NCBI GenBank assembly: GCA_021399345.1
Contig: JAAFKI010000022.1
Span: 1 to 50,608, forward strand
Length of the DNA: 50,608 nt
Source of the DNA: Candidatus Heimdallarchaeota archaeon
Lineage (GTDB): Archaea; Asgardarchaeota; Heimdallarchaeia; Heimdallarchaeales; Heimdallarchaeaceae
Direction: 5' to 3'
The position numbers and the translations under genes were made by a program. The notes under the pieces were generated by a model that saw nothing but the letters and a program-made list of their open reading frames with translations, was not told the DNA's origin and did no database searches. How positions within the stretch are numbered: position 1 is the stretch's first letter; every line of letters starts with the position of its first letter. Shown here piece by piece: positions 16,952 through 50,432 of the stretch.

Positions 16952-18895
16952 TCATTCCAAAAACATCTTCTGTAAATATGTTGAAAGTTGAATGCGGTCA
17001 TCAAGTACCAATTGCTGTTTGCTCTCAAATTTTGGTAGTAGGTTCCTCCAAACTTCAGAGTAGCTCTGAACTTCACTTACTAATTTTCGAAATTTTCTTG
17101 AAGCTAAAAAGGACTTTCCAACAAAAATATAACTAAAAATGAAAGTTCCATGTTTCACTTTGATAATAGTATAACCATTGTATCTAACTCTCTCGAATAT
17201 GGGGACAGTACATACATGTTTGATTTCTTCATTTTGAATTTTTGATATAATGGGGCCTATTTGGTTAGGATCAAAGGAATCTTCGTTGAGAATCTCTGAA
17301 AATAAAATAGTACCTTCTTGACCTAATATGAGAAATGCATTTGGTTTTTCCTCTTCTTTATTAACATCTTTGTAGATTAATTTATTCCTAACTAGATCAT
17401 ACAGCAAATCTTCAATATGTGTTAATTCCAATCTTTCAGAGAGATCAGGGAGCAACAAAGAAGCATTTTCCCATTGATCAAGGTTTTCAATAATTTTGTC
17501 ATGAGCATTTGAAATCAAATTAGCAAGTCTATGGATACCTTTTTCCTCTGCTATTTTTTGTGCATCATTCAATAATAGCTTGGCTTCTTCAGTGTCTAGT
17601 TCAAGCAAAGAAAGTTGAGATTCGAATAATAAAGCCTCAGCAAGAATAACGAAAGAATCTTGCTCTCTAGCTAACTTTTCTAAATCATTAATCTTCAATT
17701 TGATATAACTTAAAATTTCAAAATCGTTTGACTTTACTAATTTATTAAAGTACAAATCACACAAATGAAATAGAGCTATTTTATTCATTTCATTATGAAT
17801 GAGAGAATCATATGCAACTTCATTGAGTAGATCAACTATTTCATTTAAATCATTTTCATATGAAATTGCTTTAAGAATAATCGCTTTACTTAATTTGTAG
17901 ATTTTATGACTAAGGTGTTGCTTTCTGTAACTCTGGAAATCAGATATTGCTTTTATTTTTTCTAGATTTTCTTTAGCTTTTTTAAACTTATTTTGTTCTA
18001 GTAAAACGAGAATCAATCGAAAAAGTATCCAAGAATATCTCCGATGGTGTGAGTTTCCTGTTTCTAGAAGCATTTGAGTACACTTAGTATAATATTCTAC
18101 AGCTTCATCTAAATCGTGTTTTTGCCAGTGTATGAAACCGATATCCCCAAGAATAAATGATAACGCGTATGCTGATTCCATTTTTTCAGCAAAAGGTAGA
18201 CTTTTCATTAAATAGTCAAGCGATGTTTCTAATTCACCCATGTCAAGATAAATTGTTCCCAAGCTTGATAAACAACCCATTTTTTGTTCAAAAACATCAA
18301 ATTCCTCAGCAAGTTCTAAGCAAATTTCAAACTGCGTGATAGCTTGGGAATATTTTCCATACCACTGATAAAGACAAGCTAACTCATACTGAATATTTAC
18401 TCTTCCATAATCCCATTCTATTTCTTCTACTATTTTTAATGCTTGAGTCATTTTCTCCAACAGAAAATCAAAACCATCTCTCCACCCCTTACAATGACTT
18501 TGCAATATGGCTTTCCTTTTGAGGTATTCTTGTGTTTCTTGATCAATAATTGAATCAAGGGTTTTTTGGGCTAGTTCTAAATTCTCAGCTCCATCTTTAA
18601 TATTCCCGGTAAGGCATAAAGATCTACCAAGATGAAAAGCTGAATCAATAATAAGGAATTTATTACCAATTTTCACACTCTTTTTAACAGCTTTTTCACC
18701 AAATTCTATTGCCTTAGTAAATGGTTGAAAAATACTATACAATTGCGTTTTTAATTTATAACAAAAGACTCTATCCTCAGACGTAACATCGCTTCTTCGT
18801 TCTATAGAATCTATTTCTTTTAGTGCCTCATAATATCTGCCAGTAAGAAATATATTCTCAATTGCTTCAAATTTCTCGTCTGAAACAGTCTTCAT
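16952..18895 (-). CDS. Tetratricopeptide-repeat protein with possible C-terminal longin-like alpha/beta domain
   Basis: Repeated LG.IY...G....A..Y...L TPR units; C-terminal FLILGQEGTILFS...FIFSYIFVG segment. Confidence 0.75.
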   Translation of the reverse strand: MKTVSDEKFEAIENIFLTGRYYEALKEIDSIERRSDVTSEDRVFCYKLKTQLYSIFQPFTKAIEFGEKAVKKSVKIGNKFLIIDSAFHLGRSLCLTGNIKDGAENLELAQKTLDSIIDQETQEYLKRKAILQSHCKGWRDGFDFLLEKMTQALKIVEEIEWDYGRVNIQYELACLYQWYGKYSQAITQFEICLELAEEFDVFEQKMGCLSSLGTIYLDMGELETSLDYLMKSLPFAEKMESAYALSFILGDIGFIHWQKHDLDEAVEYYTKCTQMLLETGNSHHRRYSWILFRLILVLLEQNKFKKAKENLEKIKAISDFQSYRKQHLSHKIYKLSKAIILKAISYENDLNEIVDLLNEVAYDSLIHNEMNKIALFHLCDLYFNKLVKSNDFEILSYIKLKINDLEKLAREQDSFVILAEALLFESQLSLLELDTEEAKLLLNDAQKIAEEKGIHRLANLISNAHDKIIENLDQWENASLLLPDLSERLELTHIEDLLYDLVRNKLIYKDVNKEEEKPNAFLILGQEGTILFSEILNEDSFDPNQIGPIISKIQNEEIKHVCTVPIFERVRYNGYTIIKVKHGTFIFSYIFVGKSFLASRKFRKLVSEVQSYSEVWRNLLPKFESKQQLVLDDRIQLSTYLQKMFLE

Positions 18896-18985
18896 TATGG
18901 CACTTCTATGAAATTATAAATCTCTTCAAGAAGAGAATGGTCATTAATAGGTTTTTCGGGAAAAATAATAGACAACTGAGCCGAA

Positions 18986-19287
18986 CATAGCGACCTGTTG
19001 TTCGACGCCATTTCAGAAGCCGTTTCTTAATCATAAGCTCCACGCCGCTTGCTATGGGCACCACATATCAATCTTAGAGCTGCTTACTTCCGTACCTGGC
19101 TCATTTTGACTTCAACCTTTCTAACGATTTCCTCCGAAATCGCCTCCAGTGTACACAGTCTCATAGGGCAGCGCTTCGACGCCATCCGATTAAGGCGTAT
19201 CAACCTCAACGAAGCCTCAGCAACAGCATTCACCCCAGCATATAGAGCGCTTCTGGTACAAGGACGCCCTAGGTCCCCGGCTAGTCG
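18986..19287 (-). ncRNA. ffs: Archaeal SRP RNA (7S RNA); precursor stem spans 18974-19304
   Basis: Minus strand has Alu-domain start GACTAGCCGGGGACCTAGGGCGTCCTTGTACC, helix 6 with GGAG loop (CGATTTCGGAGGAAATCG) and helix 8 GCCAGGTACGGAAGTAAGCAGC; about 300 nt. Confidence 0.93.
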
Positions 19288-19393
19288 TTGCTATCGACTC
19301 AGTTTCTAGTAAGCAAAAGATGTAAGACCAATTTAAACATTGCTATTTTTGGTTAATACACCACTTTTTGTTTATTTACCTAAAGAAGAACTT

Positions 19394-19963
19394 ATGAACG
19401 ATTATTTTGGTTTAGCTTTAATGCCTGAATCAGCTGATGATAATCAATTTACTGAAGAATTTATTCAAGCTATTGATGATTTCCTAAAGGATGCTACTAA
19501 GCTTGCAATTCTTGGTATTGGAAATGAAGATAATGGAGACGATGCAGTAGGATTGTATATCCTTACTATTCTTCAAGAAGCAAACCTACCAGATTGGGTA
19601 ACAAATTTTTATTGTGAAAAAGTGCCTGAACATTTTCTTGGGAAATTTAGAAAATTAGAGCCAGACAGAATCATTATTTTAGATGCTGCAGATATGAAAG
19701 AAATACCAGGAGCTATTGCAATCTTTCCCAAAGAAGCTGTTTCTAGTGGTTTTCATCTTTCAACTCACACATTGTCTTTAACAATGCTTGAAGAGTTTCT
19801 CAAACCAGTTGTTCCAGATCTAATTACAATGTATGTGGGTATTCAACCAAAGGATCTATATTTTGACACCCCTCTTTCAAAGGAGTGTAAGGATGCAGCT
19901 GAAGAATTTGCAGAACTATTAATAGAGAGAATAAATCTTACAAACAAAAATAGAACAAAATAA
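19394..19963 (+). CDS. hycI: Hydrogenase maturation endopeptidase HycI
   Basis: ILGIGNE..GDDAVG, VPEHF, IILDAADM...PG, STHTLSL, GIQP. Start uncertain (19394 or 19421). Confidence 0.88.
   Translation: MNDYFGLALMPESADDNQFTEEFIQAIDDFLKDATKLAILGIGNEDNGDDAVGLYILTILQEANLPDWVTNFYCEKVPEHFLGKFRKLEPDRIIILDAADMKEIPGAIAIFPKEAVSSGFHLSTHTLSLTMLEEFLKPVVPDLITMYVGIQPKDLYFDTPLSKECKDAAEEFAELLIERINLTNKNRTK

Positions 19964-50153: not shown

Positions 50154-50432
<279 letters not shown>

Follow-up and report, generated by a model that had tools for sequence, protein, structure and literature searches.

The SRP (7S) RNA occurs universally, and as a rule the start of transcription and simple trimming fix its ends. 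RtcB, the ligase that acts once the splicing endonuclease EndA has released its products, joins exons and introns alike. EndA cleaves bulge-helix-bulge (BHB) motifs, defined by a 4-bp helix separating two 3-nt bulges, in pre-tRNA, pre-rRNA and pre-mRNA (PMC5829648). In Thermoproteus tenax and T. uzoniensis the leader and trailer of the SRP RNA form a BHB at which the RNA is circularised, and recombinant endonuclease cleaves this motif (Plagens et al. 2015, eLife, PMC4731332). The Thermoproteus gene is circularly permuted, and ligation is thus needed to restore the SRP RNA. Leader/trailer BHB stems also excise the archaeal 16S and 23S pre-rRNAs, which RtcB circularises; these rings carry spacer and are usually re-opened and trimmed, with some 23S rRNAs staying circular (PMC12918454). 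Circular SRP RNA junctions appear in circRNA surveys of Sulfolobus, Halobacterium and Thermococcus (PMC3326292; 10.64898/2026.03.23.713588). As far as the available text of these surveys goes, they are minor species or segments and no BHB is described for them, whereas the Heimdallarchaeal gene studied here has a conserved canonical BHB. Our literature search found no paper linking SRP RNA with Heimdallarchaeia or describing a BHB around an Asgard SRP RNA.

The Heimdallarchaeal locus resembles that of Thermoproteus in its leader/trailer BHB, in the involvement of the splicing endonuclease (in vitro there), in RtcB as the proposed ligase and in a closed SRP RNA, although here the ring is a prediction only. 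The sequence-only reading had likened it to the circular SRP RNA of crenarchaea; the comparison is apt as regards the BHB frame and fails as regards gene order, which is permuted in Thermoproteus and collinear here (PMC4731332). Thermoproteus is a hyperthermophile, unlike the Heimdallarchaeal hosts, which are low-GC (33%) Asgard archaea known from environmental metagenome assemblies. Because the host is not a hyperthermophile, heat protection is an unlikely rationale for the arrangement. The two systems would also differ in the place of the junction: it falls in SRP helix 1 in the Heimdallarchaeal RNA, while in Thermoproteus it reportedly lies at a different, internal site. Unlike in the pre-rRNAs, the predicted cuts are within the terminal helix of the SRP RNA itself and would leave no spacer.

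The gene lies on the minus strand of the window (the whole stretch of 50,608 nt that was analysed). The archaeal SRP RNA model RF01857 matches positions 18987-19294 (-) over its full length (model positions 1-317, in order and not permuted) with 94 bits and an E-value of 1e-21, and this is the only match in the genome (3.27 Mb, 88.6% complete). The score is 2.5 bits below the gathering score of 96.5, and for this reason a default Rfam scan does not list the gene; the SRP RNAs of close relatives score 96-133 bits. The helix 8 core, CCAGGUACGGAAGUAAGCAGCUC (19077-19099, -), has the expected GNAR tetraloop, here GGAA (19091-19088), and the AGCAG loop (19084-19080), as placed by the RF01857 alignment, and is near-invariant in the genus. 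A regular helix 1 made by free 5′ and 3′ ends was not found. The 9-bp helix 1 of the model falls on AUAGCAACG/GGUCGCUAU with several non-pairs, and this region is divided instead into the inner helix, a bulge and the central helix of a BHB. Two open reading frames over the gene are spurious, namely 18906-19064 (-) and the antisense frame 19049-19309 (+). The latter, of 86 aa, has a single near-identical match among 5.8 billion proteins. CRISPR-DR24 also gives a match nearby, at 18864-18886 (E 0.62), which we take as chance. A 207-aa ORF contains weak C/D-box snoRNA-like Rfam matches (19424-19519, +, E 0.2-8), which are most likely chance UGAUGA/CUGA words.

The SRP RNA appears to be a transcription unit of its own. 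A TATA box, TTTAAAT (19331-19337, -), precedes the outer helix of the BHB at a constant distance throughout the genus alignment. Archaeal TATA boxes have a usual spacing to the start of transcription, and this value places the predicted start near 19308, with a leader of ~21 nt. Directly after the outer helix follows a U-rich stretch, UAUUAUUUUU (18961-18970, -), which is likely the transcription terminator; a T-run is found at the same place in relatives. With the start near 19308 and the U-run after the outer helix, the leader and the trailer (~25 nt) would therefore contain little beyond the strands of the BHB. A separate TTTATAAT box stands ~20 nt before the ATG of the downstream 647-aa ORF. 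We considered the SRP RNA as an intron in the 5′ UTR of this gene; the U-run and the ORF's own box exclude such an arrangement.

The BHB is built as follows, all on the minus strand. Its outer helix pairs AACUGAGUCGA (19294-19304), the part of the leader that would be lost on cleavage, with UCGGCUCAGUU (18974-18984) of the trailer over 11 bp, including one U.G. The central helix pairs UAGC (19290-19293) with GCUA (18988-18991). The 5′ bulge AAC (19287-19289) and the 3′ bulge UGU (18985-18987) each lie 3′ of the central helix on their own strand. The inner helix, GACU (19283-19286) with GGUC (18992-18995), is 4 bp long, includes one U.G and represents the remnant of SRP helix 1. That a canonical BHB encloses the SRP RNA had been claimed from the letters of the window, and the claim was right to the base: the same geometry was obtained from the sequence and from our script, with the RF01857 match inside. 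A genome-wide scan returned 1151 BHB-like matches (outer helix of at least 7 bp) among ~2.7e9 position pairs, and the SRP motif has the top score among those with GC-rich inserts. It is also conserved and covarying in relatives, and it is not a chance match. The minimum-energy fold of the whole precursor (351 nt) is no more stable than shuffles (z = -0.65) and draws the motif slightly differently. The BHB of the SRP RNA is real and conserved, and it is almost certainly functional.

SRP loci were gathered from 83 genomes of the class and 151 across the phylum, and the flanks were inspected by eye and by script. Public records with the helix 8 sequence of the genus are labelled Heimdallarchaeota and include AB_125 and two complete genomes of Ca. 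Heimdallarchaeum. A 3-4-3 BHB stands at the SRP termini in all 38 loci of the order for which both flanks are available (families f1, f3 and f4). It is weaker in three of them: the outer helix is 4 bp long in G030 and bulged in G041, and in G044 the inner helix has 1 bp. Of the cells in 28 distinct BHB sequences, 93% hold canonical pairs; a shift of the 3′ partner by 1-3 positions lowers this share to 29-39%. Anchoring of the alignment on the motif forces pairing in the central helix, at outer positions 1-2 and at inner position 0. It leaves outer positions 3-10 unconstrained, and each of these shows 4-6 canonical pair types. The families have unrelated helix sequences, while all three retain the bulge sizes and the spacing of 4 bp. 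This can be seen from the 5′ strands alone, written as outer helix, central helix, bulge and inner helix: aactgagtcga-UAGC-aac-GACU in this genome, gatgctgagctga-UAGC-aac-AGCU in Ca. Heimdallarchaeum, and gtgctaaatca-GUAG-uua-GUCU, tgcttgtgtgcttg-GGGC-aac-UGCGC, cctctcctat-GAGC-aac-AC and tcccctcaccc-GGGA-aaa-AC in other relatives in the order.

Outside the order the picture is different. A terminal BHB is absent from 24 loci of the sister families f5 and f7 of the same class (one labelled Hodarchaeota, the other including the JABLTI01 records) and from 50 loci of 21 other Asgard families. Chance matches in these loci have outer helices of 2-5 bp at best, plus one of 7 and one of 10 in AT-rich flanks. 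In f12 and f17 an uninterrupted G/C-rich helix 1 mimics a BHB (GGUGG-GUCU-agg...). The sister families have an AT-rich TATA-like box ~25-30 nt upstream of the SRP 5′ end, there is no leader, and both ends form a plain helix 1. The counterpart of the TTTAAAT box is ~26 nt from that 5′ end. Most of the other Asgard loci, inspected by eye, likewise have a TATA-like box and no leader. Covariation of the BHB in other Asgard SRP loci had been proposed as a check; the BHB, with compensatory changes, was found in 38 of 38 loci within the order, and no BHB was found in the 74 outside it. Leader and trailer are present only where the BHB is present, which points to a single gain of the motif at the base of the order. 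A separate observation concerns G022, where a second, 5′-truncated SRP copy (C152:1360-1657, BPTM01000152.1) lies ~270 nt downstream of the complete one. It has kept the 3′ strand of the BHB without the 5′ strand and is probably a pseudogene or an assembly chimera.

The position of the cuts was predicted with the rule that each strand is cut after the second nucleotide of its 3-nt bulge. We calibrated the rule on the intron-containing tRNAs that ARAGORN finds in this genome. In five of the eight tested it agrees exactly with ARAGORN on where the intron starts and how long it is, and position 37 is the last of the 5′ exon; no strict BHB is present in the remaining three. The rule, which the sequence-only reading had stated, thereby reproduces the 37/38 boundaries of five tRNAs of the host itself. 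For the SRP RNA it predicts cuts at 19288/19287 and 18986/18985 and an excised RNA of 302 nt (18986-19287, -).

However, pairing in the central helix can extend to 5 bp (AUAGC/GCUAU), which gives a 3-5-3 structure, and a second 3-4-3 register exists one base over, with AUAG/CUAU and the bulges CAA and GUU. In a mini-substrate made of leader and trailer the calculated energies are -21.0 kcal/mol for the first register, -20.2 for the 3-5-3 structure and -19.2 for the second register, with a minimum of -21.9. The second register is thus less stable than the first by 1.8 kcal/mol. These values favour the first register, which would be preferred and not exclusive, and because the two compete within 1.8 kcal/mol the exact junction is uncertain. 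Excision of 19287-18986, as proposed from the sequence, follows from the cut rule in the first register, and the second would release 304 nt instead (18985-19288, -). When all sizes of bulges and helices are compared, 3-3-3, 3-4-3 and 3-5-3 score alike in the genus; owing to the 5-bp AUAGC/GCUAU helix, this comparison is unable to single out 3-4-3 there. The matter is settled by lineages in which the register is unique. Only the first is possible in Ca. Heimdallarchaeum (Ca. H. aukensis and endolithica, CP084166 and CP084167), in f4 and in part of f3, and only the second in one subgroup of the genus and in genera g10-g12. Both are possible in most of the genus, this genome included.

With ligation in the first register the ring would be joined as ...GGUCGCUAUG to CGACU..., the 5′ strand of the central helix being gone with the leader and GCUA and UG of the 3′ side being retained in the excised RNA. 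Two new pairs, G-C and C-G, would then lengthen the inner helix, with UAU as a triloop. The resulting hairpin GUCGC-UAU-GCGAC, foreseen in the sequence-only reading, is present in the circular minimum-energy fold. In lineages with only the second register the predicted ring has a 7-nt loop. The first new pair, between the 5′-terminal base and the first base of the retained central-helix strand, covaries: it is mostly G-C, A-U in G034 and U-A in G036, and neither of these two has an alternative precursor register able to use it. In the second new pair the C and the bulge G, which would become the 3′ end, are invariant in the lineages of the first register. The covarying pair lends modest support to a selected structure after cleavage, given that just two lineages show it and that the base change also improves central-helix pairing in the precursor.

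The genome encodes the enzymes that such processing would use. The EndA family (PF01974) has two members, at C182:18859-19410 and C89:2402-2944, with scores of 99.5 and 57.7 bits and lengths of 183 and 180 aa. RtcB (PF01139, 549 bits) is encoded once, at C55:70799-72127. The exact geometry, the motif with compensatory change in 38 of 38 loci and in none of 74 outside the order, the genes for EndA and RtcB and the cut rule reproduced on tRNAs together give strong support to the SRP BHB being a canonical substrate of the splicing endonuclease, as had been supposed.

Hence, we suggest that the SRP RNA is excised by EndA and circularised by RtcB, and that the ring is its working form; we put the probability of this reading at roughly 60%. 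We infer cleavage, ligation and persistence of the ring from what EndA and RtcB do to tRNA introns, pre-rRNA, the cbf5 mRNA intron and the Thermoproteus SRP RNA (PMC4731332, PMC5829648).

In the first step a precursor of ~345 nt would be transcribed from its own TATA promoter. Base-pairing of its leader with its trailer, and of both with the distal half of SRP helix 1, would form a helix-bulge-helix-bulge-helix structure.

In the second step EndA would cut both 3-nt bulges between their second and third nucleotides. The inner helix would keep the two ends of the excised RNA together, and RtcB would join the 2′,3′-cyclic phosphate to the 5′-OH.

In the third step the SRP RNA would emerge as a covalently closed ring of 302 nt (19287-18986; 304 nt in the alternative register). 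The stump of helix 1 in the ring would be capped by the small hairpin described above, and the ring would serve as the working SRP RNA.

The ring may instead be transient, that is, formed at the BHB and then re-opened or trimmed, with a linear working SRP RNA. Circular pre-rRNAs made at BHBs are indeed re-linearised in several archaea (PMC12918454; 10.64898/2026.03.23.713588), and a later nick would be compatible with the SRP sequence. However, the cut sites lie inside SRP helix 1 and the excised RNA has no spacer to be trimmed, the junction hairpin is compact and has one covarying pair, and the SRP ring of Thermoproteus is the mature form (PMC4731332). We therefore consider a transient ring unlikely.

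Still less probable, in our view, is that EndA only sets the ends and the SRP RNA stays unligated and linear, ending in a 3′ tail of 6 nt. The comparative data point to recognition and cleavage of the BHB but do not extend to ligation, which agrees with such an outcome. Against it, RtcB is encoded and the inner helix would hold the ends side by side. The invariance of the bulge G and its partner C in the lineages of the first register is moreover hard to explain for a dangling tail.

The least probable reading is an uncleaved motif (an extended terminal helix of a linear SRP RNA of ~345 nt, the stem of another nuclease, or an incidental or protein-binding 3-4-3 structure), since, although both ends form a terminal helix 1 in many archaeal SRP RNAs (RF01857 consensus), here the bulge sizes and the 4-bp spacing persist over three families despite full turnover of the helix sequences, leaders are missing where the BHB is missing, canonical BHBs are cut in pre-tRNA, pre-rRNA and pre-mRNA (PMC5829648), and the same geometry is found at real tRNA introns of this genome.

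The processing by EndA and RtcB that we favour predicts defined sequences. In the first register the junction would read ...CAGGTCGCTATG joined to CGACTAGCCGGGG..., and in the second ...CAGGTCGCTATGT joined to ACGACTAGCCGGGG...; GGTCGCTATG followed by CGACTAGCC, or alternatively GGTCGCTATGT followed by ACGACTAGCC, is diagnostic of the ring. The unprocessed precursor would have ...GAGTCGATAGCAACGACTAG... at the 5′ boundary and ...GGTCGCTATGTTCGGCTCAG... at the 3′ boundary. The ligated product of leader and trailer would contain ...GTCGATAGCAA joined to TTCGGCTCAG... A search pattern tolerant of every junction of 0-8 nt and of the variation within the genus gave no match in the metagenome collection, where only genome-like contigs matched internally. 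There the helix 8 pattern of the genus was found in 13 contigs of 1-83 kb, none of the size of a transcript; because all are long, they look like genome assemblies and not transcripts. On a contig derived from the ring the antisense ORF would reach 124 aa; the matched protein has 86 aa and comes from a 1129-nt JGI contig. No product of an antisense ORF spanning the junction was found among the 5.8 billion proteins.

The SRP RNA is not the only stable RNA of this genome with BHB-like flanks. A 5S rRNA gene in the window (50190-50374, -) gives a weak, scrambled match to RF00001 (19.8 bits, E 0.13). It consists of the 3′ half, UACG and the 5′ half, in this order, between the complementary BHB-like flanks CCUAGUAAGGU and ACCUUAUUAGG. 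Like the SRP RNA it is a stable RNA in the position of an intron, and the same EndA/RtcB route is predicted for it. A parallel between the two genes had been drawn before, and it agrees with the order and the flanks of the 5S gene. It does not extend to permutation: the permuted 5S makes ligation obligatory, whereas the SRP gene is collinear. The RNase P RNA (RF00373, 151.8 bits; C169:209206-209525, +) has an ordinary P1 helix, and no BHB was found at its ends in this genome. This rules out that all stable RNAs are circularised; the BHB route would serve some of them and not all, as the RNase P RNA has ordinary ends.

Some further loci of the genome deserve mention in their own right. A BHB-like motif, acgcacg-TGAG-ggg-AC ... 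GT-TTCA-taa-cgtgcgt, occurs three times around a GC-richer insert of 54 nt (C16:3037-3090, C104:42-95 and C109:21940-21993), the copies on C104 and C109 being near contig ends. The insert has no Rfam or tRNA match and may be an intron in a repeated element. A 292-nt segment at C195:27725-28016 (-), with 51% GC against 33% in the genome, lies in a weaker 3-4-3 structure, ggtgtt-TCTC-cag-GTGC ... GCAC-GAGA-tga-aacgcc. It has no Rfam match and may be chance or another excised RNA. A GC-richer segment of 247 nt at C41:110058-110304 (+) has a short BHB, ctctat-GCTG-aag-GT ... AT-CAGC-gcg-atagag. ARAGORN also reports a tRNA-Ser(GCU) with a 431-nt intron (C169:23408-23932) and a tRNA-Arg(UCG) with a 778-nt intron (C182:620-1488). 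Introns of this length are unusual for archaea, and these two may be artefacts.

The SRP gene is of a kind that annotation pipelines overlook or bound wrongly, since it scores below the Rfam cut-off and has spurious ORFs on top. RNA analyses that assume linear reads will mis-map its ends. If our reading is true, circularisation of the SRP RNA at a BHB goes beyond two hyperthermophilic Thermoproteus species with permuted genes to a collinear gene in hosts known from environmental metagenomes. As these hosts show no sign of life in extreme heat, heat protection would then not be the whole reason for a circular SRP RNA.

Last, we consider it about an even chance that the ring made by EndA and RtcB is the only mature SRP RNA across the order (f1-f4, including Ca. 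Heimdallarchaeum), with a single origin at its base; together with the permuted 5S rRNA, this would mean that a mesophilic Asgard lineage has come to depend on EndA and RtcB for maturing its core stable RNAs. In an entire Asgard order the SRP RNA gene appears to have been rebuilt for release by the enzymes of tRNA splicing, most likely as a ring.
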